A DNA stretch of 64,000 bases, taken from positions 63,836 through 127,835 of the forward strand of contig JBBIRK010000001.1 of assembly GCA_037441845.1 (NCBI GenBank). The letters are read 5' to 3'. Of this stretch, positions 26,925-58,076 are shown in pieces. Position numbers and translations under genes: made by a program. Source of the stretch: Candidatus Zixiibacteriota bacterium. Its GTDB lineage: Bacteria > Zixibacteria > MSB-5A5 > UBA10806 > 4484-95. Under the pieces are notes generated by a model. It was not told the DNA's origin and made no database searches. It worked only from the letters and a program-made list of their open reading frames with translations. How positions within the stretch are numbered: position 1 is the stretch's first letter; every line of letters begins with the position of its first letter.

Positions 26925-27184
26925 TGTGTCTCGCCGTGCCGGGAAAAATAATCGAGATCACAGGCGCCGATATCGAAAAATCGGCTAAAATAGATTTCGG
27001 GGGCATTACCAAGTGGGTGAGTCTTGCGGTTCTGCCTGATGCGGCCGTAGGTGATTATGTAATCGTTCACGCAGGAGTTGCTATATCGCGAATCGACGAA
27101 GCCGAAGCGAAACGGGCATTCGAATATTTTGAACGGATCTCGACTGAGGTAAATGAAAGCGGCGAAAATGAAGTTTCTGACTGA
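26924..27184 (+). CDS. hypC: Hydrogenase maturation chaperone HypC
   Basis: [21 protein letters not shown]. Start chosen so that Cys is residue 2. Confidence 0.95.
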
Positions 27185-30448: not shown

Positions 30449-31492
30449 TCATGAGGAACGCGATTGGGTCGGCTTGGGAACGGCGGAATTTTGAATATAA
30501 TCACCGTCTTCGCGATCTCTCTCGCTTATAAGTTTCTTGAAGCTCAACCCCTCGCGAATGGAAAAAAACCAGCCCAATAGCAGCGGCGGAAGGTAATTGA
30601 ACGTATGAAGGATTATCGAAAAACTGAGAGCCGTCTGCCTACCTACATGAAACAGCGAAAGGGCGAATACGCAGGCCAGTTGAAACGTTCCGATATTGAC
30701 AGGCGTGACGACGATGGTCACCAGAACGGTGTTGATAATCATTATTATCACCGCTCCCCAGAAAGTGATGTTCAACGAAAAAGCGGCTATCAGCAGATAA
30801 ACCATTATCGCTTGCAGCAGCCACGAAAGAGCAGTCAGAGCGGAAACCAGATAAAGATGTTTGCGGCTGCGAAGCATTTTCAGGCCGACTATAAAACTGT
30901 TCTTGATATCCGTCAATCGTTCGATCCACGAAACCGCCGGCCAATCTATTCTCCTTTTGACCTTCAACTCGGCCTCGTGATGATGGCGGGACATCCGCCA
31001 GAGCACGATCGAAAGCGCGATGACGAGAACGGCACCGATAATCTCCCAGCTGCGTATCGATTCCGGAAACACGTAAAATAGCGATACCACAAAAAGCAAA
31101 CCCACCAAAACCAGCGCATCGAATAAAATCTCGAGCACCACCGAGGTGAATGCGGTCGTCTTTTTGATGTCCTCCTTGCGGGCAAGCAGAAAAATGCGGG
31201 CCACCTGCCCGGTGAGCGCCGGCATCAACAGGTTCATCATCATGCCTATGGAGAAGGTGGAAAATATGCTCAGTGAATCGACTTTCTTGCCGGCATCGAT
31301 GATGAATTTCCAGCGCTGCGATCGAACGAATGCGATAACGAACTCGCATACGCTTAAAGGAAGCAGATACCAGAAATTAATGCTTTTTATAATAGGCCAG
31401 ATTCTATCGAAATTGAAATCTCGAAAAATGAATATACTTAAAGCTATTGCCAGGATTGCAGCCCAAAACCTCTTGCGCTTAAGCAAATTCAA
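30449..31492 (-). CDS. Lysylphosphatidylglycerol-synthase TM region / flippase-like membrane protein (UPF0104)
   Basis: RSQRWK, MNLLMPA..GQVAR, TPVNIGTF, about 8 TM helices. TTG start overlaps the batE stop. Confidence 0.85.
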   Translation of the reverse strand: MNLLKRKRFWAAILAIALSIFIFRDFNFDRIWPIIKSINFWYLLPLSVCEFVIAFVRSQRWKFIIDAGKKVDSLSIFSTFSIGMMMNLLMPALTGQVARIFLLARKEDIKKTTAFTSVVLEILFDALVLVGLLFVVSLFYVFPESIRSWEIIGAVLVIALSIVLWRMSRHHHEAELKVKRRIDWPAVSWIERLTDIKNSFIVGLKMLRSRKHLYLVSALTALSWLLQAIMVYLLIAAFSLNITFWGAVIIMIINTVLVTIVVTPVNIGTFQLACVFALSLFHVGRQTALSFSIILHTFNYLPPLLLGWFFSIREGLSFKKLISERDREDGDYIQNSAVPKPTQSRSS

Positions 31493-32244
31493 AATCGTAT
31501 CTCCATCACGGCATCCATCGGAACCCACCCTTTCAATCCATTGGCTAATTCCACCAAATAATACCCTTGCCTCGACGATAGAATATTGAGTTCGAGTCCG
31601 TCATGGCAGGTGAGTAATTTGCCGAAATCTTCTCCTGGACCCTCAATCAACTCGATCGAAGGGGTCACGATCACTCCCGGACGCTGTCTGAGTTCTTGTT
31701 TGATCGCGGAACCCGCAACCAGCGAAGTCAAAATAAGCAGCGAACCGATAATAATCAAAAGATAAATTAGTCTTCGTCTATGCCCGGCGGACAGGATTAG
31801 CAAAGAAATTACCGCCGCGGAAAACCAGAATAAGACCGCGCACGCCATAAGATAAAAATCAGGACTCATGAATCCGATGATCTCAAACCATATATCACCC
31901 AATATGCCCCGCGGCTGCAGTTCGACTTTATCGACGACTTGATTCCGCACGAGTCGCAGGTTTTCTTCGCAAACCTTCAGCGACGGCTTCACTATAAGGG
32001 CTTTTCTATAATAACCTATCGCCGCACCGATTTTGCCGGCCTTATAATACGCATTTCCCAAATTATAAAACAGCTCTCCGGAAACGACTCCGCGCTCGAC
32101 CAGACTTAAATAGGATTTAATAGCCCGATCGTAATCGCCGCTATCGTAAGCGCTGTTGGCTTCGTTCCACAAATCCAACTGCGTCGCCGATGTATGCGGC
32201 ATGGCCACAAGCGTAAAAACAAAGACTGTCAAAATCCGGATCAA
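31489..32244 (-). CDS. batE: BatE-like TPR + TM + SH3b protein
   Basis: ANSAYDSGDY, LFYNLGNAYYK, two TM helices, GP...HDG...LANGLKGWVP. Confidence 0.88.
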   Translation of the reverse strand: MIRILTVFVFTLVAMPHTSATQLDLWNEANSAYDSGDYDRAIKSYLSLVERGVVSGELFYNLGNAYYKAGKIGAAIGYYRKALIVKPSLKVCEENLRLVRNQVVDKVELQPRGILGDIWFEIIGFMSPDFYLMACAVLFWFSAAVISLLILSAGHRRRLIYLLIIIGSLLILTSLVAGSAIKQELRQRPGVIVTPSIELIEGPGEDFGKLLTCHDGLELNILSSRQGYYLVELANGLKGWVPMDAVMEIRF

Positions 32245-34088
32245 TTCAGGCTCCTGTCAAGTCGAGACAATAATTTTTCAGCCGATTCATATATTTCCTG
32301 CATCTGCTTTTTCTCCGGTTTTACGGGTGAATATCTGGCCGAATCGCAGGCGTTCACAAGTTTTTCCAAGTCAGAGACTAAGTCACCGCATTTGCCCGTG
32401 TCAGTAAGCAATTTCAGCATGGCTTGGGTCGTCAATCCGGCGGCGCTGACATTCAACTTATCGGCCACGAAACCGACCACGCCGGTGTAGATACTCGAGA
32501 AAAAGCGTTCTGGATCGTTCAGTGATTCCCGGGCTGATTTAAGAGCTTTCCGAGCGGCCTTTGAGGCATACGAACGTCTGGCGAAAGCTTGATCGTTTTC
32601 CAATCGTTTCTTGCGGGCGGAATAGATAGTTAATCCGGTCAGCCAGGCGATGGGAAATATCTGCATATACCAGAAAGTCGAATTTCCATAAAGCGGTTTG
32701 CTCGGGCGGGATTCGTTAAGCTCCGTAATTATATAGTTAAGCCCCGTCTTCTCGGTACCTATGATATTTCTGGCTATGCTCAAAGGATTTTCCGCGATTG
32801 CTGCCGAGCGGCCAACTTTCACCGCACCGGCCTTTTTATTGAGAGTGATATATTTGCCCTGTTGTGGATCGAAATACGAAAACGAAATATCCGGTAACTC
32901 ATACTCCCCAGGTGCCGTCGGTATAAGCACCCATTCGAAATTCTTGGATCCGGAAATGAGGTAATCGTTTTTCGAAATGTTTTCGCTGCTTCCGGAATCG
33001 TACAGGCGGAAATTCTCGGGTTGTCTCAATTCGAGTTGAGGAAGCTTCTTCATATTGCCCACGCCGGCGATCGAGGCTTTCAGAGTAACCGGCTGATCGA
33101 CGACTACGGAGTCACGATCCTTTGACACGCTCAAAGAATACCTCCCGACTGCACCAGAAAAATCGGCCGGCTTTCCGTTTTCGGGAAGCTGCCGCACTTC
33201 CAACACGAGACTCGAAGTCCGCAAAACCTGTTCGCGCTGGGGGGCTCTTCGCCTTTGACCGAACATGCCGAAGGGATCGTCGAAGAAACTATCGAAAAAA
33301 CCGAAGGCGTCGGCGGGAATGACCAATTCGGCGGGATCGATCACATGGCGCCCGGGCGTCGTCGGGAAAAGAGCACGCCTTATTTCGGTAACTCGATATA
33401 CTTTGCCGTTGATCGTGGTAGTATAAGATTTATTCGGCGGCAAATCCTCGATCCAAAAACCGGAGTAATCGGGCCACTTGAGAGTCGGCTGCTGAAAGAG
33501 ATTCTGCGCTTGATAGAAACGGAATGTCAAAGTTACTTGCTGGCCGACGTAAGGGCGCGAATTGTCGACCGATTGTTCGACGAAAAAATCCTGACCGGCT
33601 CTTGTTCCTGCCGGCTGCTGGGTCTTGGCCTGCGGCTTTTGCGGCGATGGAGGTTGAGCCGTCGATTGCCGGACCTCGATCTTGATTGGCTCCGTGGAGT
33701 AGGTATTGCCTTGATATTGAACCACGGCCGGTTGAATCGTGATTATTCCGATCTTACGCGGAACCAATACGTAGCTGTAAGTTATTTGATTTACGAATGA
33801 CCCGATCCCGATCGAAAAATTGGAACTCGTTCCCGACGAATAAACTTCGAAATCGGACAAGTCCGGTAATATCGGTTTGGGCAAAGATCTGACGGTTCCC
33901 GATAATGAAACGGTCAAATTGATCGATTCACCGAGATCGACCACGGTGCGATCGACCTCGGCGGTTATCTTGATGTCCTGCGCCACCAACGCTGATGTCA
34001 GGGCGAGAACGATCAGTACGCTACCAATCGCGAGACGAACCTGCTTTGACTTTGAACCGGCGCAATTTTTCCTGTATCTGTCTTTCAT
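32241..34088 (-). CDS. batD: BatD family protein
   Basis: AEVDRTVV..GESINL, PYVGQQV, FSGAVG, GVGN, FSYFDP, C-terminal TM plus ARYSP. Start uncertain (68-nt overlap with batC). Confidence 0.88.
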   Translation of the reverse strand: MKDRYRKNCAGSKSKQVRLAIGSVLIVLALTSALVAQDIKITAEVDRTVVDLGESINLTVSLSGTVRSLPKPILPDLSDFEVYSSGTSSNFSIGIGSFVNQITYSYVLVPRKIGIITIQPAVVQYQGNTYSTEPIKIEVRQSTAQPPSPQKPQAKTQQPAGTRAGQDFFVEQSVDNSRPYVGQQVTLTFRFYQAQNLFQQPTLKWPDYSGFWIEDLPPNKSYTTTINGKVYRVTEIRRALFPTTPGRHVIDPAELVIPADAFGFFDSFFDDPFGMFGQRRRAPQREQVLRTSSLVLEVRQLPENGKPADFSGAVGRYSLSVSKDRDSVVVDQPVTLKASIAGVGNMKKLPQLELRQPENFRLYDSGSSENISKNDYLISGSKNFEWVLIPTAPGEYELPDISFSYFDPQQGKYITLNKKAGAVKVGRSAAIAENPLSIARNIIGTEKTGLNYIITELNESRPSKPLYGNSTFWYMQIFPIAWLTGLTIYSARKKRLENDQAFARRSYASKAARKALKSARESLNDPERFFSSIYTGVVGFVADKLNVSAAGLTTQAMLKLLTDTGKCGDLVSDLEKLVNACDSARYSPVKPEKKQMQEIYESAEKLLSRLDRSLN

Positions 34089-34779
34089 CGTCTTTGAACG
34101 CTCCCAATAACTCCTTGGCCTCTTTTTTGCTTAGTTCCTCACCGGAACGCAGAGCCGATTGATCTTTATTTTCAGCTTCGGATTTTCCCTGTTCGCGGTT
34201 TTTATCCGATTGCGACCGTTGATCTCGGTTATCTTCACTGGATTGATTTTCCTGAGGATTATCCGCTTTATCGTTTCCGTTTTGATTTTGTTTCTCTTGG
34301 TTTTGGTCCTGATTTTGACCTTGTTGCTTCTGATCTTGCCGCTGTTGATTTTGTTGCTGTTGCTGCATACGTAACAGCGAAAGTTCGTAGTTGAATCGGG
34401 CGTCATTATCGGCGGGATTTTCGGCCAAAGCCGCCTTGAACGCCTCAGCTGCTTTTGCGAAATCCTGGTTTTTGAACAGCGCATTCCCGAGATTATATTG
34501 CGACCTGCTTTTATTTGCCTGTTCCGCTTTGGCGGCAGCGGCTGCAAAACGGTCGGCGGCCTTGGCGTATTCTCCGGCTTTATATTGCGCTGCCCCGAGA
34601 TTGAAAGAAGCTTTATCGTCATCGGGTCTGACAACCTCCGCCTGTTGGAAATTTTCGGCTGCCTTCCGATAATCGCCGGATTTGTAATTCTTCATCCCCT
34701 CGCTCATGAGTCCTCGAAAATCATCCGCGGCGGCGATACCGATGGAAAAAAGCACTGAAATCATGATTTTACGCAACAT
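34021..34779 (-). CDS. batC: BatC-like TPR protein with a Gln-rich linker
   Basis: FNLGAAQYK, YNLGNALF, DARFNYEL, Q-rich tract, C-terminal DW. Confidence 0.88.
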   Translation of the reverse strand: MLRKIMISVLFSIGIAAADDFRGLMSEGMKNYKSGDYRKAAENFQQAEVVRPDDDKASFNLGAAQYKAGEYAKAADRFAAAAAKAEQANKSRSQYNLGNALFKNQDFAKAAEAFKAALAENPADNDARFNYELSLLRMQQQQQNQQRQDQKQQGQNQDQNQEKQNQNGNDKADNPQENQSSEDNRDQRSQSDKNREQGKSEAENKDQSALRSGEELSKKEAKELLGAFKDDERQIQEKLRRFKVKAGSSRDW

Positions 34780-35770
34780 TTTTTCTTCGCTCCCCGATAA
34801 ACATCGCAGCAACCATCATAAATAAACCGGGAATCAAGAAATACTGGTAAACCTCGTTGTAAATTCGTTTGAATGTTCCCTCGGTTTCGCCTTTTTTGAA
34901 ACCCCTTATCCTATCGGCAAGCTCGTCTATTTCGTGCTCGCCGGGTGTGGCGATATAGGTTGACCCTGATGCGGTTTCGGCGATATCAGCCAAGAGCTGC
35001 TGGTTGAGTTTGGACAAGACAAGTTGTCCGGATGAATCTTTCTTATAGTCGGCTATCGAGCCGTCGGCGTTGCGGATAGGGATCGGTTCACCCTTGGAGG
35101 TCCCGACGCCTATGGTGAATATGCGAAAATCGTCCTTATATTTTCTGGCCGCGCCGACCGCATCACCATCCTGATTTTCGCCGTCGGTAAAAATCACCAG
35201 CACTTTATCGGCATCGTCCGCGGGGAAACAACCGGCGGCTGTTTCGATCGCCTTTTCGATATTGGTCCCCGTATCGGAAATGATCCCCACTTTTATGATG
35301 TTCAAAAACATCTTGACCGCGCTGTGATCGGCAGTCAGCGGACACTGCACGAAAGCTTGACCGGAAAAAGCGATAAGGCCGAAATTCTCGGCGGGCAGCT
35401 TATCCAAAAGCGCCAGAATCTCTCGACGGGCTTTTTCGAGGCGATTAGGATAAAAGTCGGCCGCCAACATCGAAAGCGAAACATCGAGAGCGACCATCAC
35501 ATGGCTACCGCTGGTCTTGATTTTGACCAACTCCGACCCATACTGAGGACGCGCCAAAGCCAGAATTAGCAATCCCAGGCCGAATAAAAACAGCAAATTC
35601 CTCATCATCCGACGAGCTTCCGAACGCCCGGCTCCTACTAAGCCGGCGATCGCGCTGCCCCCGAGCAGTTTCAATTTCCTGCGCACGATTCCACCACCGA
35701 GTAAAAATATAAAGGCGAAAATCGGCAGTGTCAGCAGCAGGTATAGCGCATTTTCGTTGACGAATCTCAA
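34769..35770 (-). CDS. batB: BatB-like VWA protein
   Basis: ALARPQYG, DVSLSM (MIDAS), QCPLTAD, TDGE, IGVGT.KGEPIP. Confidence 0.9.
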   Translation of the reverse strand: MRFVNENALYLLLTLPIFAFIFLLGGGIVRRKLKLLGGSAIAGLVGAGRSEARRMMRNLLFLFGLGLLILALARPQYGSELVKIKTSGSHVMVALDVSLSMLAADFYPNRLEKARREILALLDKLPAENFGLIAFSGQAFVQCPLTADHSAVKMFLNIIKVGIISDTGTNIEKAIETAAGCFPADDADKVLVIFTDGENQDGDAVGAARKYKDDFRIFTIGVGTSKGEPIPIRNADGSIADYKKDSSGQLVLSKLNQQLLADIAETASGSTYIATPGEHEIDELADRIRGFKKGETEGTFKRIYNEVYQYFLIPGLFMMVAAMFIGERRKNVA

Positions 35771-36759
35771 GGAATGCTCCTTGCCACCAGGTTGCCTATT
35801 ATAAACTCGAGCGAAAATACCGCGAGGGAAATTATCAAGAAAATTTCGTAATGTTCTTCATGCTCATAATATTCTTTTATTTCTATCTTGGATTTTTCGA
35901 GCCGGGAAATTTGGTCGTAAATCTGGCCTAACATCTGGGCATCGCGCGCCCGATAAAATCGACCGCCGGTAATATCCGCGATTTTTTGAAGAATTTTTTC
36001 ATCGACATCCGACTGCATCTTGACATATCGTCTTCCGAATATCGGATCATCGACCGGTATATCAACCAATCCCTCTCGACCGGCTCCGATCGTATAAACC
36101 TTGATACCGAGTGCGGAAATCGCTTTGGCCGCGGTCAACGGATCGATTTCGCCGGCGTTATTGGCTCCGTCCGTCAAGAGTATCATCACCTTGCTCTTGG
36201 CATCCGATTCGATCATCCGGTTGGCGGCAGTGGCCAGCGCCAGCCCTATCGCAGTTCCGTCATCGACCATACCGAAATCAACCATATCTAAAAATCGGCG
36301 GAGCAAATTGAGATCCGCTGTCAGCGGACACTGAGTGAACGCTTGTCGAGAAAACACGACAAGTCCGATCCTATCCCCCTGTCTGCCCTCGATGAATTTG
36401 GAAATCACTTCTTTGGCGATCGCCAGCCTATTATACGGCTTGAAATCCTCCGCCCTCATGCTTCCGGAAGTGTCCAGTATCAGCATGATATCTATCCCCT
36501 CGGAAAAAACCTGTTTCTGCCCGAAACTGGTTTGAGGGCGGGCCGCAGCCAAAATCGCAATGCTGATCGCCGCCGCCGACAGCCAAGGCCTTGCTTTCTG
36601 AAATCGACAACGGATTGTCTGTCGCGCGTTCGAAAAAAGCGACAGATCCGAAAAAGCCATCGCCGCAGGACGCAGATATCGCCGGTAAAAGTAAAACACC
36701 AGATAGCCGATCGGGAATATCAATAAAACCAGCCAGTATGGATCGGCGAACTTGATCAT
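35767..36759 (-). CDS. batA: BatA-like VWA protein
   Basis: AAARPQ, DTSGSMRAEDF.P.NRL, GTAIGLAL, LTDGANNAG.IDP. Confidence 0.92.
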   Translation of the reverse strand: MIKFADPYWLVLLIFPIGYLVFYFYRRYLRPAAMAFSDLSLFSNARQTIRCRFQKARPWLSAAAISIAILAAARPQTSFGQKQVFSEGIDIMLILDTSGSMRAEDFKPYNRLAIAKEVISKFIEGRQGDRIGLVVFSRQAFTQCPLTADLNLLRRFLDMVDFGMVDDGTAIGLALATAANRMIESDAKSKVMILLTDGANNAGEIDPLTAAKAISALGIKVYTIGAGREGLVDIPVDDPIFGRRYVKMQSDVDEKILQKIADITGGRFYRARDAQMLGQIYDQISRLEKSKIEIKEYYEHEEHYEIFLIISLAVFSLEFIIGNLVARSIP

Positions 36760-37709
36760 TTCACCACCTCGACTTCCACTGCCACCGGTTTCGTCTCCAT
36801 GATGAACGACTTAACGGCATCGAAATCAGAATTCGCGTGGTTGGCGTCGGGAAGGTATTTCGCGAACTTAACCAGATCCGCCCGCATCAGCACCGATAGC
36901 GCCGCGTCAGCTTGAACCCGTGGCAGGTCATCGTGTCTAAGAGAACGCTTGAGCTCCAACGTGGTCGACTCAATTGCGGCTATGCCGAATCTTCCCTCGA
37001 TATAGTTACGCAATATAAGCGTCAATTCGATATAATACTGTTTGAAATTACCTTTTTCGATCAACCCGGCTGCGGCGAGTGCGTTCAGTCTGCGCAGGGC
37101 GATCTCATAGGGGGACTCAGCGGGGACATCGGGCAAAGGCATGCGAAGCAAACGGCGTTTATAGAGCCAATAGCCGGCGGCAAGCGATCCAACCGCCGCC
37201 AGTATAATTACCGCGATCAACCATCTCCTGCCCGGCAACTCCTGCGGACCGACTATATCTTTTATGTCCAGCCCCGCGGTATCGGCCGGAAGAACGGATT
37301 TCACGAATATGCTTCCCGGTTTTGCGAAAACGGTCATGACCGAATCGACGGAATCATGCCAGACAAATTCCAAATCCGGAAGCTCTTGGGCTCCGGAGAC
37401 AAACGGTGAGCCTACGAATTCGTACTTATCCTCGAGCGATCCGGAAACCTGTTTCGAAGAGAGCAAACGGGCTTCTTTCATTAAAAATCGGCCGTCGGAT
37501 TTCACCTCGGCAGGCTGATGTAATTTGGTTCCGGCGGGATAAATTGCGGTGACCGCGATAACCAATTCCTCTCCGATAAGAAGAGAATCTCTCGACCGGG
37601 TAATTTTGAATTCGACAGGAATATCCCCAGACGGATCTCCGGCGGCCGGAGCTGCGCCGCACAATAAAACGGCAACCAGAACACTTTTAAGGGCAAGCGA
37701 TTTCATCAT
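36756..37709 (-). CDS. bat-operon membrane-anchored hypothetical protein (DUF4381-like)
   Basis: Signal peptide, IKDIVGP, one TM helix, LRNYIEGRF..A.ESTT.E, ADLVKFAK. Confidence 0.85.
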   Translation of the reverse strand: MMKSLALKSVLVAVLLCGAAPAAGDPSGDIPVEFKITRSRDSLLIGEELVIAVTAIYPAGTKLHQPAEVKSDGRFLMKEARLLSSKQVSGSLEDKYEFVGSPFVSGAQELPDLEFVWHDSVDSVMTVFAKPGSIFVKSVLPADTAGLDIKDIVGPQELPGRRWLIAVIILAAVGSLAAGYWLYKRRLLRMPLPDVPAESPYEIALRRLNALAAAGLIEKGNFKQYYIELTLILRNYIEGRFGIAAIESTTLELKRSLRHDDLPRVQADAALSVLMRADLVKFAKYLPDANHANSDFDAVKSFIMETKPVAVEVEVVK

Positions 37710-37719
37710 AGGTAATTTA

Positions 37720-38601
37720 TCAACGACGAAGACGCCTTGCCCTTTTTTCGAAAAGCTTAATAAGCGGTTCGGCATAATCTTCACGAGTATTGATATCCGC
37801 GTAGTCGATATTGTGACCGAGGAAAATCTGCCGCATCTTGGCGATCCTATCGGCGGCGGCTAATGCGAATCTTCTCCGGTTTTCCTTGTCGTAAAGATCG
37901 ATCGTCATTTCGCCGCCGGTTTCCAGGTCGATAAGGTTAATTAGCCCCGAGGACGGCCAAACTCGTTCGATGGGATCGAATACCCTGACGGCGACCATGT
38001 CGTGTTTATTCGAAATTATGCTCAGCTGTTTCTCGAATCCGCTGTCAAAAAAATCGGAAATCAGGAATATCACGCTTCTTTTTTTGATCGCATTCAGTAA
38101 ATAAGCGAGAGCATCGGCGATACCGGTTTTTCGACCGGTCGGCGTGTAATAAAGAACGTCGCGTATAATTCTCAGCACGTGACGGCGGCCCTTACGCGGC
38201 GGAATAAATTTCTCGATTCGATCCGTGAATAACAACAGCCCCACCTTATCGTTGTTTTTGATTGCGGCGAAAGCCAAAAGAGCGGCCAATTCCGCCGAGA
38301 CGTCGCGACGAAACGCGTTTCCGCTGCCGAACAGTCCGGAGGCCGACAAGTCAACCGCGATTACCACGGTCAATTCCCGCTCCTCACGGAATACTTTCAC
38401 GAAAGGACGATCATAACGTGCGGTCACGTTCCAATCGATAGTCCGGATATCGTCTCCCGGTATATAATCCCGCACCTCGGAAAACTCCATTCCTCGACCG
38501 CGAAAACTCGAATGATATTCGCCGGAAAAGATATCATTGACCAGGCGCGAGGTGGTGATTTCTATCCGCCTGATTTTTTTCAAGACTTCGCGCGGCAACA
38601 T
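37720..38601 (-). CDS. DUF58 protein (MoxR-associated VWA-like)
   Basis: GRGMEFSEVRDY.PGDDIRTIDWNVTAR, EEREL, ISDF. Confidence 0.95.
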   Translation of the reverse strand: MLPREVLKKIRRIEITTSRLVNDIFSGEYHSSFRGRGMEFSEVRDYIPGDDIRTIDWNVTARYDRPFVKVFREERELTVVIAVDLSASGLFGSGNAFRRDVSAELAALLAFAAIKNNDKVGLLLFTDRIEKFIPPRKGRRHVLRIIRDVLYYTPTGRKTGIADALAYLLNAIKKRSVIFLISDFFDSGFEKQLSIISNKHDMVAVRVFDPIERVWPSSGLINLIDLETGGEMTIDLYDKENRRRFALAAADRIAKMRQIFLGHNIDYADINTREDYAEPLIKLFEKRARRLRR

Positions 38602-38604
38602 CGC

Positions 38605-39585: not shown

Positions 39586-39687
39586 AAGACCTCCAATTTT
39601 GGAAAATATTACACCGTAGACTCGTTTATGTTCCACCCAACGTGGACGAAATTTCGTCGAGTTCCGCCGAGTTCTGCTTTGTTTTTT

Positions 39688-45537: not shown

Positions 45538-45540
45538 AGA

Positions 45541-47240: not shown

Positions 47241-47241
47241 A

Positions 47242-48054: not shown

Positions 48055-48064
48055 CGTTCCTCCT

Positions 48065-51000: not shown

Positions 51001-51349
51001 CGAATGTACCGTCGCCAGTGGTCGTGGGGTCATCGGGGACTTCCTGCTGAAAGTCGACTTTCAGAACGAGGACGTTCAGAGTATCGATCTGAGAGGAAAG
51101 CGCAAGGGGTAGATTCCCCTTGGCAACCGGCAATCCGAATTCGGTTTCGCGCTCGAGTTTCAACAGATTTTTCCGTGACACCATCGAGTGGAACCCGGTG
51201 GTTCGGGGTCGAGATTCCGATGGATTCAGCGACCATTTCCCGCCGGATTGAACGGGCCTAAGCACCGACGGAGGTAAAGCCGAATGGACGGCGACCCAAA
51301 ATGAAAATACGATTGGAATTACGATCCAGCGGATTTGCGATGCGCTCAC
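48065..51349 (-). CDS. M6 (immune inhibitor A-like) metalloprotease + FG-GAP repeats + T9SS-like C-terminal domain
   Basis: LKVDF, IFHAG, AHEFGHQLGLVDIY, FSLMD, YFLIENRQ, GILIWHVDE; D[LI]D.DG repeats; YPNP...IFDLSGELV...WD...APGVY. Confidence 0.9.
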   Translation of the reverse strand: MSASQIRWIVIPIVFSFWVAVHSALPPSVLRPVQSGGKWSLNPSESRPRTTGFHSMVSRKNLLKLERETEFGLPVAKGNLPLALSSQIDTLNVLVLKVDFQQEVPDDPTTTGDGTFDLRSYEQFLQEEGHFLDPAPHNTAYFSSHMEALARYWRFVSDRRLRLIWEIYPVEETVSLRLPFPMSYYGSGGNPDSIISGLERFFIHSITLADSQFPQLDFGRFQSVIIFHAGSDQQNNFSFIDDTPNDLWTGFISLGDSVSVDSGRNYISEGLLMPETASQDNRITCLNAVLAHEFGHQLGLVDIYSTLNFMTQVGDFSLMDNNGMSVAIDLGEGARFVNGALPIYPDAWSRAYLGFSAVHEVVNQQNVPVRAAEQAYFNNEIVKVPISEHEYFLIENRQTTADFGYLDYNPSIPNVLLADPATGVILGPGYAYFDMNDTIKVPTGEYDRLLPGDGILIWHVDETVAYMDYLGNGRNNFLNNTLQWDPSRRFLTVVEADGIIDFGGNYYTGYGSADDYYRIDNNATLSPFTNPSSRSNLGADSHIWITDIDSSDTLMHCGSIRIDWFRPGFPVMGFPYIGDNHDLLFLDLNADGRNELLTGGGRFLVCLQHDGTPYFPLTSGLYVPRFDGDSLIYDLPLFTINDTSLAARPVAGNLIADDRLEVILLDNRGILRVYAPIDSFPLDSLSDFMTGLTFPADVTASPLTIDLDLDGNDEIVVGFEDKTIRYLKMFSPDSLAMTVLDSLTRTPRAVAIADSVAYIICADDLSFTCRILRRSGISFTFVGEITLPDGQYRGLAAADFDRDLFADAVVVIGDYLCLIDGAEYSLSQRLLPNLGPPAVGDIDTDGYPDIALIGGDRFLTIYALNRNCVYLNGFPVRLNFAANSSAESPAVTLADLNSNGYPDIIFALPGGGVAAYDYRGIPLPGFPLPTTSHLIGPPIACDLDGNGALEIAALDSFGFVTAWNLEADYDSLRNPWPMSDGGHYANPVLDARFNRPISSASGFLPDGSVYCYPNPASDRVAFRYYSDRDARVVVKIFDLSGELVENLSGAAIAGSDNEIAWDCRNVAPGVYLARIEADAVDSKKHMILKVALIK

Positions 51350-51360
51350 GCTACACCTGT

Positions 51361-53934
51361 CTAAAAGCCTACGTTGATCGATAACCTGACGGTATTCCCC
51401 AGTCGATTGGTCTCTTCATTGGATGATGGGATATACGAGAGGTCAACCCGCAGCCGCGAATATTGCAACGAGCCGCCGAGCGTCATATATCGCTGCACAC
51501 CGATATCATCATATACGTAACCGGCCCTGACGGCTATATAATTCGAATACCAATATTCGGCTCCGATATGAGGGATTATCTCCCTTATTTCGGTTTTCAG
51601 ATCGTCGTTGAGATCCACCAGCAGCTTGTTGGCCTCGCCCACTATAGTCAACCTATTGTACGGTGAATCAATCAGCTTGTAGGCGAAAGCCACCGCAAGC
51701 TTGCGGGGAAGCGGGTCGGCCTGATCGGCATCGATATAGGCTATCTCCGGTCCGATATTGGTGATGGTGGCCGCAAGATCGGTCCGCCGGTCAAAATTGT
51801 ATAAAACACCACCATCGACGGCACCCGAAAAACCCACCCCCTTGCCCTTTTCCAGGCCGGCACCGACATCGGCAAGATGGGAGATAATAATTCTGGCGGA
51901 TATCCCCGCGGAGAGGGATTTCATCAGCTTCGTGCCATACGAAACGGTCCAGGCGAGATCATAGGACGTAAATTGTCCGATTACGTCGCCCACTTCGTTG
52001 GTTCTATCCTGTTGACCATAGGAAAGAAAGGTTATACCGGTGCCGAAAGTCCCCCACTCGCTGGTGGGATAGACGATCGCGAAATAATCGTAGTATAAAT
52101 CCGGAGCGAGCTGGGTAAGGTAATTGGAATGCATGAAAGTCACCTGACCCCGGGGGCGAGCCAACAAATAAATCCGATCGGAACCGGCGAACCAGAGCTC
52201 GCCATATTCGTTTTCGATCGTGTGAACCGGCGAGCGGATCCCCTCCAGGCGGGCGAAACGGCTCCAGATTCCGTCGTTGTATTCGACGACGCCATAGGCG
52301 GTTCCGACATAAGCCTTTTTCTGCGAGACGGCCGACACGGAAAAAATCTTCGAACCGAGCTGATTGGCGTAAACCACCAAACTTTTCCCCTGAGGAATCG
52401 TTTCGCCTTCAAGTTCGTTTAGTTCCAGAATCTTTCCGGCAAGCCTTTCGACCTGTTCATCGCTGCCCTCGGGAAGGATATTTCTTGCCATTTCGAAAAC
52501 GCTCATCTCCCTATCAGCTTGAATCACGCGATAACCGAAATTAACGAAAGATTCGCCATCGAAAAGCACAAGGCCGTTCTCGGTTCCTATCCACAGATAT
52601 TTATCTTTGGCGGCAAGCGAGGTTATGTCGCCCCACAAGGCTGGGGCATACGGAAGTTTTATTTTTTGACCGAGCGTTACCTCATCGCTGAAATCGTTCA
52701 ATCGCCGGACCTGTTCTTTTAGGCGTTCGATATTCAAATCGGCACCGGTGCGATAGATTTTTTTCAAAATGTCCCCAAGAGTCTCGCCGACGGACACTTC
52801 ATGAATCATGTAATTTTTCCACGACCCGCCGTCGTAATGATATAGATCCCGATCGGTTGCCGCCCAGATACTCTGGTCGCTAATCGCGGAGATGTTAGAA
52901 ATATATCCCTGCGGCGGGGTTTCCTGGGAAGAATATTGCTTGATCCTAACGCCGTTATAATAAGCTATGCCGTTTTCGGTTCCGACAACTATGCTTTTCT
53001 TGCCCATTTTATCGAGCGCGGTTACTTTGAGAGCCGGCAAGCTGTCAGGCAACCCGTAATACCGCCATTTATTCGAGGTCGGATCGAATCGATAGAAGCC
53101 GGAATCGGTGCCGGCATAGATCATGCCGTCATGCGATTCCAAACAATTGGCCGGAGCCTTGCGCGGCAGATCGAACGGTATCCTGATCTCGGACATGGCC
53201 TTTGCACTTACCGCGTGGTCTATTTCCGCGATCAACGTGTCCGTTTCCTCGGTCGAAAGACGTCCGTCGGCCGACATCGTTTGAACCGACTTTTCGAAAT
53301 TGATGAAACCCTGCGGCAATAATTTGAGCTCAGCATATGCCGCGGTTAGACGATTGACGCCGTTCCTGATATACTCGGCATTCGGGTCCGAGTCGGATAT
53401 TCTGGTAAGAACATTATTGATGACGGATTCGAGCCGCTGGCGGCTTATCCTCAGGTTCCACTGCAAAACTTGATCGACTTGCGCGCTGAGCTGATCCCTC
53501 TCGGCGCCGGTGTAACGGGCCACGATATCCGACAAAGCCGTACCGGCTCCGATTTTGACCGCTATGCCCGAATTCCAGCGATCTTTTTCCCATTTCACCA
53601 GATGACCGTTCATCAATGCCCAGATATCGAACTGCTTATAATTATTTTCCGGCATATCGTTCTTAACAAGCACCAATTTTTCGATTTTATATCCTCGTCT
53701 CGAGGGTAACTCCAGCCACAACGGCGAAAGAGGATAATTCCCCAGGCCGGCGGGATTCCAGTGGGTCGCCGTCGCATCATCGGCAATTGATACAAAAGTC
53801 TCTCCCATGCCTCCGGCGCGGGCTCCCGGAGCGATCAGCAAAAACGGCACGGCGGTCTGCGAAACCTGAGCCGAAGATTGCGCAGCGATAACGACCAAAA
53901 ACAAAATCGCGTATATGGATAACCTTTGCATCAA
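51361..53934 (-). CDS. porV: PorV-family OM barrel with a ~530-aa beta-propeller/LysM insertion
   Basis: AVPFLLIAPGARAGGMGE..ADDATATHWNPAGL at aa 28-64. The barrel resumes near aa 595 (FMHSNYL..L..DLYY, SYDLA..VSYG, NIGP.IAY..QADPLP, GAEYWY...AVRAGY, RVDLSY..NTVRLSINVGF). Directly downstream of porU. Confidence 0.88.
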   Translation of the reverse strand: MMQRLSIYAILFLVVIAAQSSAQVSQTAVPFLLIAPGARAGGMGETFVSIADDATATHWNPAGLGNYPLSPLWLELPSRRGYKIEKLVLVKNDMPENNYKQFDIWALMNGHLVKWEKDRWNSGIAVKIGAGTALSDIVARYTGAERDQLSAQVDQVLQWNLRISRQRLESVINNVLTRISDSDPNAEYIRNGVNRLTAAYAELKLLPQGFINFEKSVQTMSADGRLSTEETDTLIAEIDHAVSAKAMSEIRIPFDLPRKAPANCLESHDGMIYAGTDSGFYRFDPTSNKWRYYGLPDSLPALKVTALDKMGKKSIVVGTENGIAYYNGVRIKQYSSQETPPQGYISNISAISDQSIWAATDRDLYHYDGGSWKNYMIHEVSVGETLGDILKKIYRTGADLNIERLKEQVRRLNDFSDEVTLGQKIKLPYAPALWGDITSLAAKDKYLWIGTENGLVLFDGESFVNFGYRVIQADREMSVFEMARNILPEGSDEQVERLAGKILELNELEGETIPQGKSLVVYANQLGSKIFSVSAVSQKKAYVGTAYGVVEYNDGIWSRFARLEGIRSPVHTIENEYGELWFAGSDRIYLLARPRGQVTFMHSNYLTQLAPDLYYDYFAIVYPTSEWGTFGTGITFLSYGQQDRTNEVGDVIGQFTSYDLAWTVSYGTKLMKSLSAGISARIIISHLADVGAGLEKGKGVGFSGAVDGGVLYNFDRRTDLAATITNIGPEIAYIDADQADPLPRKLAVAFAYKLIDSPYNRLTIVGEANKLLVDLNDDLKTEIREIIPHIGAEYWYSNYIAVRAGYVYDDIGVQRYMTLGGSLQYSRLRVDLSYIPSSNEETNRLGNTVRLSINVGF

Positions 53935-54053
53935 ATCCTCCCTGTCATTTGCGCCAGTACAATTATCGACACGGGTCGTCCGTTTGTTGATTTTCAGTCA
54001 TTGCGTTTAATACTGCAATTGCCAACTTGCGCACCCCGCACGATAACCGATTA

Positions 54054-57000
54054 TCATCTCATTATCACGAGTTTCGATTGAAAAGAGTCTTTTTGCCGCC
54101 GGCCCTCGTCGTCATACCCGATCGCTTCGATTCGATAGATATAAACGCCGCTGGCCAACCTGTCACCATCATCATCGCGCAGATCATACGGCAGAAAATG
54201 ATGGCCGCCAACCGTGTATTGAGGCGAATCCTTTCTTATGGTTTTGATTAATCTTCCGGACAACGTGAATATTTTGAGAGTTACGGTTTCAGCCGGTCGA
54301 GTTAAAACATATTGAAACGTAGTCGAGTCGGTCTGCACCGCCGGATTCGGATAATTCATCACATCGAACAAGGAAAGATCGGTCGTTCCGAAAACTCGAA
54401 TCGGCGATGAATAAACCGAAGAGTTATTATAGCTGTCCCAAGCTTTGAGACTGATCGTATAATCACCATCGGGGAGCAACGGCAATTCCGCTGAAACCTC
54501 GCCACTCTGCCAGTTGCCGAGATCGAAGCGGAAATCGGAGGTTATGTCCGCCGAGTAGGTCTGACCGCCGTTTATGCTCATCACGATCCCGTGCCCCATC
54601 GAACCGGTGATATTTATGCCATGCTCGTCGAACAGCCTGAACACCAGTGACGCCCCGGATGATACGACCGCTAATTTTCCGGTGACCGGATTTCCGTTGT
54701 AATAAAACTCTATCCGGGGGCCGACGGTATCGATTTCTCCGGCTGCGCTGCCGGAAATCGGCAGCGAATCGACTATGCCGGAACCATCGATCGTTTCGTT
54801 GGCGAAATAAACGTAAATTTTAGCCCTCGATCCGCCATAGGAAATATCCTTGGGCACGAAAAACGAAGTCGAAAAACGGCCGTCGATCACTTCCGCAGGT
54901 CCGTAGAACAAAGTCGGACCGGGTAAAGTATAATCGACATAAACGTAATTGGGGGGATTGAGCGGCTGGTTATTATAATCGAGGATCGCCTTATGTCGCC
55001 GAACCGAAGCGTCCTTCACCGTCACCCAGATTATGCCGTTGAAATCGGAGACGAATCGCCCTTGACTGTCGTAAATCCCGCCGGCGATCGAATCGACCGA
55101 CAGTCCTTTCAACGAATCCGGCCGGTAGGTGAATTCCGATCTCAAATAAGGCTTGGCCGCGATCATTCCCGGATCACCGAGGAAAACGTAATTGCGATCG
55201 TTGGCGATCGGCCCGTAAGGGTTGTTCAATTGCCTGATATATTTGGCCATGAAGAAAGCACCTCCGAACGTGGTGGAATCCTCGAACAAGATCTGGTCGA
55301 AAATCTCATTATTGAGATCGGTGTTGGGGCCGGCGTACACGACACGGGTTGCGCCTATGGAGGCTATGGCCCCGCCTTCAGGATGGCTCAATAAATCCTC
55401 GGCCATCGATTGATCGGCTGGCGCATCGAAAAATCCTATGGAGCAGGATGCGGCAAGCATCAGCGGCAGCTTGCGGCCGTTTCGGAGACGCGGGATATCC
55501 TCGGTTCTGCGAAATATCTGTTCGTGAGCCCAGAGATTCTTGTTGCCATGGCCTATCCAATCGACAATAAGCGCGCCGTTGTTGATCGCCTGCACCAGGG
55601 CTTCCCTTGCGTCGGTCTTCAGATTTCCCGCTCTCGTGGGATATTCGACAAGATATATTTTCTGAACCTCCATGGTCCGCGGCACATGAAAATTGCTTAA
55701 AGCCTCGGCCTGGGTGGTATGAAACGTTTCATAAGGCGAAAGTCCTCCGAGATTATCATCGGCGACGACAATCACGTTGTTGCGCCACTTTCCCATATCC
55801 GGATTAGCCTCGTAATCGATTATCTTATCGACTATGGTCTGCATCTCCGCCGCGCTGTTTACTCCCAAGCGGCCTATCATCATATCGAGGCTTCCTGAGC
55901 TGTCTGAATCGAAATACCCATAGCTACCGAAATAGATGAAGTTCTCGTCGGAACCTGATGCTCCGGCCTCAGGCGGATTCGCAGCCTCGAACGGAGGGAT
56001 ATAAATCGGGTGGCCGCCGCCCAGGTTGTTGCGAAAGTCATAGTGTCCGTCGCCGACCAAAAGGCATATTCCGGGAGAAGCACCGCTCCAATTTTCGTAG
56101 GCGAATTTCAAGAAGTCACGGATAGCGAGCGGGTCGTTCAACCCCCAACTGAATTGATTGAAGATATCGTCGATATTCACGACTCTTACTTCCAGCTCCG
56201 GATTTTGTCTTGCCCGATGTTCGGCCAGTTGCTCGACTTGTTCCCTGAACAACGGGTGCGTAATCATGATATAATCGGCGCGGTTAGCTGGGTCACGCAG
56301 GTTGTCGCGCTCGTAACGCGAATAGCGGCCTACTATTCTAAAGCGGGAAGGTCCGGCCATGTAAAAACGATGTCGACGGGAATTGACCTGCTGAAAGCGC
56401 AGCGTATCGCCGACGAATACGCCGTTGACTATTCTGCGCACGCTATCCGGCGAACTTATATCCAGCAGCACATAATCACTCGAGGTCCCGGCGACTCGAT
56501 ATTCGATTCGTCCGAGCAATGTGGGGCTGGTAAACGTCAAAACGTTATCGACTGTCCGCAGATGCCTGCTGTAATGAATCTCTATGTAATCCAGAAAGAA
56601 TTCGACGGCATTGCTCAATACGAGAGTATTATAGCCACCCTGAAGGTTTTGTGTGGAGAAGAAATGCAGATAAGAATAGGGGTCCCTATAAACCGAGTCG
56701 CGCGTCGCCGCAACTCCATTCACCGTCAGCCCCGAGAAGGAATTCCTGGTCTTCACTATCACTCTCGCGGGAATTCCGCCCAGAGCGTCGGTCGCCTGAA
56801 TACTGGCGGTGAAATTCTGGCCGCGGCCCCAGTACCAATCGAAATAATTGGCAAATTCGCCGCTCGATTCGGTTCTATAAAATATGAATTCCTGCTCGTC
56901 ATGCGTAAAATCGGTGAAACTGGTCATGATCGCCAACGGCGATCCCGTCGGCGCGCCGTTTTCCTGCGCCCAGCGCCGGGGAAGATTGCCGAAGTTGCCC

Positions 57001-58076
57001 CCATAGGTCAACCAGTAGGCGTTGCGCGATGTATAATGATTGCGCTGGTAAGTGAAGCGGCCGGCTGATTCGTTGAATTCGAATCGATCCACGCTTTCGC
57101 CGAAAAACAGCACTTGATCGCCGAAATCGAATACCCCGTCATCGCCGCCGATAACCTCGATCGGGATCTCGAAAAGGTTCGGTCGGGCGGTTTCATTATC
57201 AAAAGGCAACTCATCGCCGCCCCCATAGAAAATCCTGATCTGGCGGGGATCTATCTGGCCGACATCCAAACCGGCATTCGAAAGATCGAATCGATTTATC
57301 CTGTATATACCGGTATTGGAGATTTCCATTTTAAGCCACACTTCCGCCGAGTCGAAAGCCGATGCGGTCATCTGTGATCGCAACTGCGTCGGCGGCCAAT
57401 CGATCCGCCATGCCTCGGCCAGTTCATAATTGGCCACGAGCTCTTTAAGTATTTTGTCGAATACCGGTCCGGCAGGCCGCTGGGAAACCGCCGGCGATCG
57501 GGAAACAGGCACGAAATCGATCCGCACGACGATCTTTTCGGCTTTCATCCGCAGATCGCCGTCGATGTTTATGGGGGCCATAACCAATTTCGCGATGCGC
57601 AATCCCCGGATAATATCTTCTCCGGCCACCCAGGCGATTCTTGTCGGCCAGCTGGTCGTCCTTCTCTGATTCCGTGCGAGTTCGGCCGAAAACTCTTTTT
57701 CTGAAAAGGAGCAAATATAGGGTGCGGTTTCCGCCGATTCGAGCGGGATAAACGATTGGCTCAATATGGTTATCCGGATATCGCAGTTGAATGGTACGCC
57801 GATCGGGATAACTTTTATCGGCAATAACGGCTCACCTTCGATTCGGTTCTGCGCCGTTCGCGGAATCTGTGGGTAACGATATGATTCCGGATATCCCTCG
57901 ATCTTGGTATCGCTAACCGGCGGGACAAGGTAGGTGACGGTCATGCCGCTTATCGAGGATTCATTTATGAAGATGTCGTTATCGAAAACGATTTCGCCCG
58001 TTTCCGGATCGGAAAAGGATAATTGCGTCCCCAAAAATAAAATAGAGGCTATTATCGCAATGCGAAAGAGTCTCAA
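54054..58076 (-). CDS. porU: PorU-like T9SS sortase (C25 family) with propeptide-like N-terminus and CTD
   Basis: GIYRI, IRIFYGGG..LP, N.YT..NAYWL, IFNQFSWG..DPLAIRDFLK, LLVGDGHYDFRN, IGRL, ADD, WIGHG (His), ASC (Cys), LGDP, DTVGP.I, LFDEHGIN, LKAWDSYNN, NYPNP. Confidence 0.92.
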   Translation of the reverse strand: MRLFRIAIIASILFLGTQLSFSDPETGEIVFDNDIFINESSISGMTVTYLVPPVSDTKIEGYPESYRYPQIPRTAQNRIEGEPLLPIKVIPIGVPFNCDIRITILSQSFIPLESAETAPYICSFSEKEFSAELARNQRRTTSWPTRIAWVAGEDIIRGLRIAKLVMAPINIDGDLRMKAEKIVVRIDFVPVSRSPAVSQRPAGPVFDKILKELVANYELAEAWRIDWPPTQLRSQMTASAFDSAEVWLKMEISNTGIYRINRFDLSNAGLDVGQIDPRQIRIFYGGGDELPFDNETARPNLFEIPIEVIGGDDGVFDFGDQVLFFGESVDRFEFNESAGRFTYQRNHYTSRNAYWLTYGGNFGNLPRRWAQENGAPTGSPLAIMTSFTDFTHDEQEFIFYRTESSGEFANYFDWYWGRGQNFTASIQATDALGGIPARVIVKTRNSFSGLTVNGVAATRDSVYRDPYSYLHFFSTQNLQGGYNTLVLSNAVEFFLDYIEIHYSRHLRTVDNVLTFTSPTLLGRIEYRVAGTSSDYVLLDISSPDSVRRIVNGVFVGDTLRFQQVNSRRHRFYMAGPSRFRIVGRYSRYERDNLRDPANRADYIMITHPLFREQVEQLAEHRARQNPELEVRVVNIDDIFNQFSWGLNDPLAIRDFLKFAYENWSGASPGICLLVGDGHYDFRNNLGGGHPIYIPPFEAANPPEAGASGSDENFIYFGSYGYFDSDSSGSLDMMIGRLGVNSAAEMQTIVDKIIDYEANPDMGKWRNNVIVVADDNLGGLSPYETFHTTQAEALSNFHVPRTMEVQKIYLVEYPTRAGNLKTDAREALVQAINNGALIVDWIGHGNKNLWAHEQIFRRTEDIPRLRNGRKLPLMLAASCSIGFFDAPADQSMAEDLLSHPEGGAIASIGATRVVYAGPNTDLNNEIFDQILFEDSTTFGGAFFMAKYIRQLNNPYGPIANDRNYVFLGDPGMIAAKPYLRSEFTYRPDSLKGLSVDSIAGGIYDSQGRFVSDFNGIIWVTVKDASVRRHKAILDYNNQPLNPPNYVYVDYTLPGPTLFYGPAEVIDGRFSTSFFVPKDISYGGSRAKIYVYFANETIDGSGIVDSLPISGSAAGEIDTVGPRIEFYYNGNPVTGKLAVVSSGASLVFRLFDEHGINITGSMGHGIVMSINGGQTYSADITSDFRFDLGNWQSGEVSAELPLLPDGDYTISLKAWDSYNNSSVYSSPIRVFGTTDLSLFDVMNYPNPAVQTDSTTFQYVLTRPAETVTLKIFTLSGRLIKTIRKDSPQYTVGGHHFLPYDLRDDDGDRLASGVYIYRIEAIGYDDEGRRQKDSFQSKLVIMR

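Follow-up and report, generated by a model that had tools for sequence, protein, structure and literature searches.

Why should genes for the attachment of secreted proteins to the cell surface, a giant outer-membrane barrel, two lipid genes and a MoxR-Bat operon stand in one unbroken line on a bacterial chromosome? The question is raised by a string of 18 open reading frames (ORFs) spanning 27,628 nt (positions 30449..58076, minus strand) of the window analyzed here, a 64,000-nt stretch of Candidatus Zixiibacteriota bacterium whose source assembly comprises 2.62 Mb in 11 contigs and is 98% complete. The initial annotation had suggested that the string might be a divergent surface-display module akin to type IX secretion systems (T9SS), with a PorU sortase, a tethered PorV, a protease bearing a C-terminal domain (CTD), a candidate translocon, a dedicated insertase, and a MoxR/VWA/Bat folding system. 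The analysis described here favors a different answer, which we hold to be probable, if with some reserve: the string is a conserved composite cluster, probably transcribed as one or a few long operons, in which the surface-attachment end of a SprA-based T9SS has been joined to envelope-building genes, and which was assembled from three older modules.

A string of eighteen genes kept across a phylum

Judged by gene content and order, the first of these modules (Module A) is made up of porU, porV, the gene for an M6-like CTD protein, and DUF5683, an arrangement that is also found in the phylum holding the Bacteroidia genome used for comparison. On the same grounds, Module B is DUF5683, an NHL-repeat lipoprotein, a barrel of approximately 1100 aa, and an Omp85-family protein, a set that recurs in Krumholzibacteriota and that is accompanied here by an apparently translationally coupled UbiA-family gene, and Module C is a MoxR, DUF58, BatA-E operon followed by a flippase-like membrane protein. 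From the upstream to the downstream end, the 18 genes are as follows.

54054..58076, minus strand: g01, PorU, the T9SS sortase, 1340 aa, with a C25 peptidase, a propeptide and a C-terminal Ig-like CTD (NF033707, Peptidase_C25)
51361..53934, minus strand: g02, PorV-family barrel with an inserted beta-propeller, 857 aa (NF033709, AlphaFold2 [AF2] model, Foldseek)
48065..51349, minus strand: g03, zinc metalloprotease of the M6-like type, 1094 aa, bearing FG-GAP repeats and a type-A CTD (NF052323, Por_Secre_tail)
47242..48054, minus strand: g04, DUF5683 membrane protein a, 270 aa (PF18935, E 9.5e-8; signal peptide and hydrophobic segments)
46473..47240, minus strand: g05, DUF5683 membrane protein b, 255 aa, a g04 paralogue at 27% identity (PF18935, E 1.3e-8)
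45541..46473 (start revised from 46539), minus strand: g06, NHL-repeat beta-propeller, probable lipoprotein (NHL, E 3.8e-18)
42223..45537, minus strand: g07, predicted giant outer-membrane beta-barrel, 1104 aa, with a ~90-aa SprA-like module (AF2, Foldseek, VIA, hhalign)
40523..42226, minus strand: g08, Omp85-family protein with POTRA, 567 aa, overlapping g07 by 4 nt (Omp85, E 2e-18; POTRA, E 3e-8)
39688..40530, minus strand: g09, UbiA-family prenyltransferase, 280 aa, overlapping g08 by 8 nt (UbiA PF01040, E 1.3e-33)
38605..39636, minus strand: g10, MoxR AAA+ ATPase (AAA_3, E 2.3e-64; AAA_lid_2)
37720..38601, minus strand: g11, DUF58 (VWA-like) protein (DUF58, E 4.8e-73)
36756..37784, minus strand: g12, membrane protein, 342 aa as longest ORF (hydrophobic segments at about 24-49 and 185-208)
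35767..36759, minus strand: g13, BatA, with an N-terminal BatA domain and VWA (VWA, E 1.2e-26; BatA, E 1.6e-6; NF047508, E 1.8e-65)
34769..35770, minus strand: g14, BatB, with VWA (VWA_2, E 3.6e-18; NF047506, E 8.2e-39)
34021..34812, minus strand: g15, BatC, with TPR (TPR families; NF047507, E 1.4e-24)
32241..34088, minus strand: g16, BatD (PF13584 BatD, E 1e-43, in three stretches)
31489..32244, minus strand: g17, BatE-like (TPR_2, E 5.2e-11; weak SH3, SH3_2 E 0.0074; two hydrophobic segments)
30449..31528, minus strand: g18, LPG_synthase_TM or flippase-like membrane protein (PF03706, E 2.5e-46; TIGR00374, E 2.8e-26)

Conservation of this order was assessed in 81 genomes from 16 families of the window's Zixibacteria-type phylum, a sample of related genomes whose counts are not independent. 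PorU scored over its cut-off in all 81, with one copy each, the g07 family was found in 73, and MoxR matched at E <= 1e-60 in all 81, with an orthologue identified in 79 (62-79% identical, among the matches listed). Where PorU and MoxR shared a contig, they lay within 21 kb of one another on one strand in 51 of 53 genomes, and wherever g07 and PorU did so (62 of 62 genomes), they were spaced 8.5-10.4 kb apart, likewise on one strand. A synteny close-up, taken from 40 kb of each of 10 genomes representing nine other families, recovered the order g01-g18 on one strand in every case, at a g07 identity of only 26-31%. The last conserved gene is g18, which ends the string in nine of these genomes and lies beyond the fetched span in the tenth. 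Synteny in relatives, a check set beforehand, is thus present and strong throughout the phylum. An impression gained from 16 loci, according to which the closest relative alone has MoxR-Bat after UbiA, was overturned by the phylum-wide searches.

The conserved block ends where the 18-gene string ends. Of the 10 fetched genomes, only two retain the pair of genes immediately upstream, and none retains any other flanking gene. The minus-strand direction itself extends past both ends of the string into unrelated housekeeping genes; upstream, beyond a gap of 185 nt, lie genes for a class II aldolase, DUF554, GuaA, and a flavoprotein, and downstream, beyond a gap of 129 nt, lies a DUF72 gene and then, on the opposite strand, hypE, hypD, and hypF (hydrogenase maturation genes, window positions 24603-29353, plus strand).

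Within the string, the genes are densely packed. With gap lengths computed from the starts of the longest ORFs, the porU/porV junction measures 119 nt and the UbiA/moxR junction 51 nt (about 100 nt if MoxR starts at an internal Met), and the remaining junctions range from +11 to -68 nt, six of them being overlaps of 4-8 nt or gaps of 1-3 nt. Terminator-like and promoter-like sites were encountered in the scan at background level, matching their frequency in shuffled sequence (25 versus 26.2 expected and 15 versus 12.9 expected, respectively), no minus-strand terminator-like site fell inside either of the two large gaps, and an Rfam scan gave no matches. The physical description offered by the initial annotation therefore stands: the ORF listing and the Pfam and NCBIfam domain calls bear out 18 co-directional minus-strand genes, most of them overlapping or close-packed, with gaps of about 120 nt (porU-porV) and about 100 nt (UbiA-moxR, from the internal Met) and with no clear internal terminator.

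The placement of the lineage outside the class Bacteroidia agrees with the labels of its relatives, which are Zixibacteria and, in a few cases, Ignavibacteria. Specifically, the closest relatives of g07 (loci L008, L009, and L012; 46-72% identity) are labeled "uncultured Ignavibacteria bacterium," and same-family relatives are labeled Zixibacteria, so that the labels conflict. A search of the accessible literature found no paper linking Zixibacteria with type IX secretion.

Three modules and their counterparts elsewhere

The opening genes of the string are recognized by curated models. For example, g01 scores 686.7 bits against the PorU model NF033707 (cut-off 420) and matches Peptidase_C25 at E 2.6e-86, its CTD at residues 1242-1318 is detected by FlgD_ig (E 1.1e-7) and Por_Secre_tail (E 4.5e-5), and it is the sole PorU in the genome. 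The g02 product belongs to the PorV/PorQ family (PorV_fam NF033709, 231.5 bits versus a cut-off of 90, residues 595-857), and near its N-terminus (residues 9-66) it is matched by the opening of the PorV2 model. It falls below the cut-off of the PorV equivalog NF033710 (180.4 versus 250 bits), the match being split by an insert of 520 aa. A signal peptide and first strand, as is usual for PorV, occupy residues 1-66, the insert takes up residues 67-588, and the remaining barrel is formed by residues 589-857. The AF2 model (pLDDT 79.4) is matched by Foldseek to PorV of Flavobacterium johnsoniae (8gl6_F; E 1.4e-16, TMt 0.60, 25% identity), and the insert resembles Reg_prop propellers, the sensors of hybrid two-component systems in Bacteroides. 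The "tethered" PorV that had been proposed is thus not what is encoded; there is no N-terminal tether, and a normal PorV start is followed by the inserted propeller. A PorV of approximately 856 aa with this insert was seen among Zixibacteria-type sequences only, and some such homologues (P0129, P0130) also have a LysM domain inside the insert, according to precomputed Pfam matches. The idea that the insert replaces PorZ was rejected, since a separate full-length PorZ-like gene is present in the genome and in the phylum, and PorZ (5m11) ranks only 33rd among the propeller matches.

The third gene, g03, invites comparison with NF052323, the family of "T9SS-dependent M6-like inactivated metalloprotease" proteins, with which it shares its position after porV, an M6-like core, and a CTD (Por_Secre_tail, E 2e-8). 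Unlike that family, it scores under the cut-off (313 versus 600 bits) and keeps an HEFGH motif at residue 292, which is intact and conserved in 15 of 15 Zixibacteria orthologues, whereas none of the four over-cut-off family members examined has an H[ED]xxH motif. By these sequence features, g03 is a conserved T9SS cargo with an intact zinc site, and the CTD-bearing protease of the initial annotation is recovered in its M6-like domain, FG-GAP repeats, and T9SS CTD.

In the model organisms Porphyromonas gingivalis and F. johnsoniae, porU and porV presumably adjoin one another. The locus described here resembles theirs in that a PorU over its curated cut-off is followed directly downstream by a PorV-family barrel and then by CTD cargo, and in that a PorZ-like gene and PorQ/PorV paralogues lie elsewhere in the genome. 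It differs from theirs in the propeller insert of PorV, in the 15 further genes that follow, and in that GldK/L/M/N are undetected.

Counterparts of Module A were seen in a second sample, consisting of 101 genomes of the phylum that holds the Bacteroidia genome (G001 together with G086-G185), again relatives that are not independent. Four loci in this phylum, all from GldM-negative genomes, carry porU, a porV that exceeds the equivalog cut-off, M6i (784-1195 bits), whose M6-like product has no zinc motif, a gene for a PD40/peptidase_MA protein (1030-1119 aa), and a DUF5683-like gene, followed by unrelated genes.

L050:5454-12978: porU-porV-M6-PD40-DUF5683 locus
L051:5578-12524: porU-porV-M6-PD40-DUF5683 locus
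L053:5422-12490: porU-porV-M6-PD40-DUF5683 locus
L054:5566-12801: porU-porV-M6-PD40-DUF5683 locus

More broadly, at least 13 of the 101 genomes, all of them GldM-negative, have this DUF5683-like gene downstream of PorU at a distance of approximately 8 kb. The DUF5683-like protein of the four loci is approximately 300 aa long, and its match to the Pfam model is confined to positions 1-60. In the accessible part of the published record, a DUF5683 protein is listed among the vesicle proteins of P. gingivalis.

Module B has its counterpart in Krumholzibacteriota, where one locus (L017) contains two DUF5683-like genes, an NHL gene, a g07 homologue, and a gene for a POTRA protein of 664 aa, followed by LigA; in WOR-3 and Hydrothermia, the g07 homologues are shorter, at 772-988 aa, and have different gene neighborhoods. 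Within the window's copy of the module, the start of g06 is most likely the Met at 46473, since the reading frame of the orthologues is interrupted by stops upstream of this point, and an invariant Cys19 (10 of 10 sequences) suggests that the product is a probable lipoprotein. The UbiA-family gene, g09, misses the cut-offs of the DGGGP synthase models (PRK12884, 161.8 versus 269 bits; PRK12882, 141.6 versus 296 bits), and the models closest to it are those of the archaeal, DGGGP-synthase-like type. A PcrB/GGGPS-family gene (E 9e-39) is located elsewhere in the genome (G000:C1:430961-431635) and is present in six of seven genomes of the order. Together, these two genes hint that g09 may act on ether-type lipids, in a pathway of archaeal-type ether-lipid synthesis.

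Module C begins with MoxR, after which come, in order and in one direction, genes for DUF58, for a protein that combines the BatA N-terminus with VWA, for another VWA protein, for one with TPR, and for BatD; this series identifies the MoxR-Bat operon. Models built for BatA, BatB, and BatC of Leptospira match g13-g15 below their cut-offs, and g12, which has no Pfam or NCBIfam match, is kept at the same position in 10 of 10 fetched genomes. As far as the accessible portions of the published descriptions go, the MoxR-Bat operons of Bacteroides, Leptospira, and Borrelia have the same set and order (MoxR, DUF58, a membrane protein, BatA-E). The operon described here differs from these in being co-directional with a T9SS and outer-membrane cluster, in having a flippase-like gene at its end, and, in some families, in the addition of a small BatD-like gene and a PMT_2 glycosyltransferase. 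This glycosyltransferase (GT-C, polyprenyl-phosphate-sugar dependent, approximately 490 aa) is encoded between DUF58 and the g12 homologue in two genomes, G049 (L041:11214-12692) and G023 (L031:12144-13613), and is not encoded in the window. To our knowledge, the function of the MoxR-Bat operon has been an open question since its first description.

The best-supported explanation for the order of the three modules is that it is kept by selection. A rather unlikely alternative is that the modules are unrelated neighbors, held in order by common descent and by the price of disrupting long co-directional transcription units rather than by shared function. It draws on the finding of the modules apart from one another in other phyla, on a junction between Modules A/B and Module C that tolerates insertions and is broken in the window's own family, and on the existence of Bat operons in bacteria without a T9SS (Leptospira and Borrelia, according to the accessible parts of the sources). 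Simple inheritance of neighbors, however, fits poorly with the closeness of PorU and MoxR on one strand in 51 of 53 genomes from 16 families, despite a g07 so diverged that its identity falls to 26-31%, or with the failure of the flanking genes to be kept alongside the string. Moreover, deletion of g07 and g08 leaves the other genes drawn together and not dispersed; in the five g07-negative genomes that have PorU and MoxR on one contig, the distance between the two shrinks to 9.5-11.5 kb.

Several observations nevertheless weigh against the composite cluster as the probable answer. The UbiA-MoxR junction is the weak point of the string. An extra small BatD-like gene is found there in seven genomes, inserts of 4-5 kb occur there in G025 and G074, and 18 kb stand there in G042, one of the two exceptions to the 21-kb rule (PorU-MoxR distance, 29 kb). 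The other exception, G036, belongs to the window's own family, and its MoxR is located 40 kb from PorU and approximately 52 kb from g07, on the opposite strand; in two loci of this family (L013 and L015), the link from UbiA to MoxR-Bat is lost. Beyond the phylum, a long distance separates PorU from the orthologous MoxR on the contig that they share in the Bacteroidia genome, the two lie on different contigs in the Krumholzibacteriota and WOR-3 genomes, and the Bat operons of Leptospira and Borrelia count here as well. The co-occurrence counts come from the related genomes described above, which are not independent, and co-transcription of the string is putative. As to the insert in G025 (5.4 kb; L033:17296-18312), it contains an IS1595-family transposase and other small ORFs, and so marks the UbiA-moxR junction as a tolerant point of the string.

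A predicted giant barrel in a genome with a full-length SprA

The barrel gene of the string is g07. It has no Pfam match, its family is without a Pfam or NCBIfam model, and its 105 homologues of similar length are all unnamed and devoid of Pfam domains. The AF2 model (pLDDT 83.9, pTM 0.73) is all-beta, with approximately 40 strands of 9-19 residues running from residue 127 to the C-terminal Phe, together with an N-terminal sandwich and two inserted domains. Foldseek places SprA chains first (8gl8_A, E 1.5e-9), before SlpA, LptD, and TonB-dependent receptors, at low TM scores (0.14-0.29). The matches of g07 in VIA-align are outer-membrane barrels without exception; the longest match is to SprA (707 residues, Z 14.1, rmsd 9.6), and the highest scores are those of porins (Z 15-17), but over approximately 270 residues. 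By sequence, the likeness is confined to one module, hhalign pairing g07 279-367 with SprA 562-655 over 88 columns only (probability 95.5%, E 1.6e-8). The SprA model TIGR04189 gives 23 bits versus a cut-off of 200, and the 1104 aa of g07 compare with approximately 1800-2400 aa for SprA. A search of PDB sequences with the g07 family profile returned no match at E <= 1, and ESM Atlas, queried with one g07 homologue, returned unnamed clusters, with a SprA-family cluster at 0.86, which serves as a lead only. Assignment of g07 to a TamB-, LptD-, or SusC-type protein was rejected, as no such family is matched in Pfam or NCBIfam. No paper title on a half-size SprA was found in the accessible literature on SprA paralogues (including PMC11205867).

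These models are consistent with a predicted giant barrel of the SprA kind that has little of the SprA cap and that lies outside the SprA family as curated; the giant barrel of the initial annotation thus holds up as a prediction of approximately 40 strands with SprA as its best structural match. Compared with SprA/Sov (36 strands; PDB 6H3I, 8GL8), g07 has in common a predicted giant single-chain barrel, the module of approximately 90 aa, and a C-terminal beta-signal ending in Phe. In contrast, it is half as long, lacks most of the cap domains, shares its genome with a true SprA, and in some lineages is dispensable.

This dispensability is seen in the joint loss of g07 and its neighbor g08. 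The g08 product contains an Omp85 superfamily domain and POTRA, and it remains below the cut-off of the BamA model (TIGR03303, 92.4 versus 297 bits). It is like BamA/TamA insertases in combining POTRA with an Omp85 barrel and, at the level of the gene, in being coupled to that of a large barrel, and it is unlike them in scoring below both curated cut-offs, in evolving fast (21-36% identity within the phylum), and in having no TamB-like partner. In the 8 of 81 phylum genomes that have no g07 match, no cluster-type g08 was found either. Two of these were examined: G076 is without g07 and g08, G049 is without g06, g07, and g08, and both keep PorU, PorV, M6, Bat, and the rest of the string. The pairing of the barrel with its own Omp85, which the initial annotation had described as a dedicated insertase, is therefore reinforced, and its candidate translocon is contradicted insofar as g07 cannot be a required one, since lineages lose g07 and g08 together and retain the attachment genes.

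The rest of the T9SS is found elsewhere in the genome. SprA is encoded on another contig (2005-aa frame, 711 bits), as is a PorZ-like frame of 748 aa, which aligns full-length and scores just under its cut-off (221.6 versus 260 bits) and whose counterparts occur across the phylum. PorV/PorQ-family frames over the cut-off number nine counting g02, eight of them elsewhere, and there are 75 CTD matches elsewhere in the genome, of which 67 are over the cut-off. The outer-membrane and attachment parts of a T9SS (SprA, PorU, the PorV family, a PorZ-like protein, and CTD cargo) are thus present, and the string is not self-contained. GldK/L/M/N, PorZ, and full-length SprA had been reported as missing from the window, which agrees with the location of SprA and the PorZ-like gene on other contigs. 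A genome-wide check for sprA and gldKLMN gave a divided result: sprA is present, and GldK/L/M/N had no match in this genome with TIGR03517, PF12081, TIGR03513, TIGR03525, or PF19841, models whose reach is uncertain.

How much should be made of the undetected motor? GldM (PF12081) was matched in none of the 81 genomes sampled from the window's phylum, and the GldM and GldL models do find their targets in the Bacteroidia genome. Across the phylum to which the latter belongs, GldM models match 25 of 101 genomes and GldL 4 of 13, though 73 of 101 have PorU, and 54 of these 73 PorU-positive genomes are without a detectable GldM first domain. Because the GldM models give no match in most PorU-positive genomes even there, absence of the motor is not established, and the state is not peculiar to the Zixibacteria-type lineage. 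The GldM matches fall on every fourth genome of the sample from that phylum, which suggests that one class carries GldM.

Against this background, the proposal of a self-contained, divergent T9SS-like display system, with g07 as translocon, g08 as insertase, and MoxR-Bat as the folding or energizing machinery, is very unlikely: a predicted giant barrel whose best Foldseek and longest VIA matches are SprA, which shares a 90-aa module with SprA and sits within the porU/porV cluster across a phylum in which GldM is undetected, in a genome where GldK/L/M/N are likewise undetected, does speak for it, but full-length SprA is present here and in 5 of 5 other genomes with a g07 homologue, the one PorU per genome must serve at least 67 CTD cargoes, g07 and g08 are both missing in 8 of 81 genomes, of which the two examined keep PorU, PorV, M6, and Bat, and beyond the shared module the likeness to SprA is structural only, with the low TM scores given above. 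A separate T9SS-like module, as first envisaged, is likewise at odds with a string that holds the sole PorU of the genome, with SprA, the PorZ-like gene, eight PorV/PorQ frames, and the 75 CTD matches lying elsewhere.

The g07 family does keep company with T9SS genes beyond the phylum. It is single-copy in 70 of the 101 genomes of the Bacteroidia genome's phylum, and all 70 have a T9SS marker, namely PorU in 66 and GldM in the other four, in which PorU was probably missed because the number of candidates scored was capped; where the family is absent (31 genomes), nine genomes have a T9SS marker. Related genomes are not independent, and T9SS-less lineages differ in other respects too, so this co-occurrence is to be read as an association and not as proof.

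What the cluster may do and why it matters

Taken as a whole, the reading of the string as a composite cluster allows a working mechanism to be sketched on the pattern of the established T9SS. Cargo bearing a CTD (at least 67 frames) would cross the outer membrane via the SprA encoded on another contig, and would be received by the g02 PorV, in whose first loop the sensor-type propeller would be exposed at the surface. PorU (g01), as its gene is identified, would then cleave the CTD and attach the cargo to the surface, with g03 as a conserved cargo in its own right. The g07 product may act as an accessory giant barrel, with the Omp85 encoded next to it (g08) as its dedicated insertase and perhaps the NHL lipoprotein g06 as a helper; it would be dispensable, since lineages lose g07 and g08 together. 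Finally, the conserved order suggests that the Bat operon and the lipid-related pair g09 and g18 may be co-expressed with the rest, all of them building or maintaining the same outer envelope.

The position of the Bat genes in this scheme calls for restraint. The MoxR/VWA/Bat folding system of the initial annotation was drawn from adjacency only, and outside the phylum the Bat operon lies beside PorU in 0 of 3 genomes checked. In the accessible literature, no link between Bat and T9SS was found beyond Riemerella papers in which aerotolerance, MoxR, and T9SS are named together. From gene order across the phylum, a physical or functional link between the two is putative. It is tempting to go further, and to regard the barrel of approximately 1100 aa as a T9SS outer-membrane component throughout the FCB group (a compact, SprA-like second channel) and the whole string as one machine, in which the inner-membrane and periplasmic proteins of MoxR-Bat would assemble or energize SprA, PorV, and PorU where GldKLMN is undetectable; this we consider a long shot. 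If it were true, the Bat operon would gain a concrete job in building the cell surface.

Even if the string is merely a co-expressed envelope cluster, it would still be a useful marker locus for annotating Zixibacteria. Beyond this, the g07 family is a candidate for a new T9SS-associated component, being carried by 73 of the 81 genomes in the Zixibacteria-type sample and by 70 of the 101 from the phylum to which Bacteroidia belongs. The presence of T9SS parts and dozens of CTD cargoes without a detectable GldM means either that the motor is too divergent for the models or that secretion is powered differently, and either answer bears on how far the present T9SS model generalizes. Finally, a Bat operon that is locked to attachment and outer-membrane genes throughout a phylum leads to the hypothesis that its role may lie in the biogenesis of the envelope or of surface proteins.

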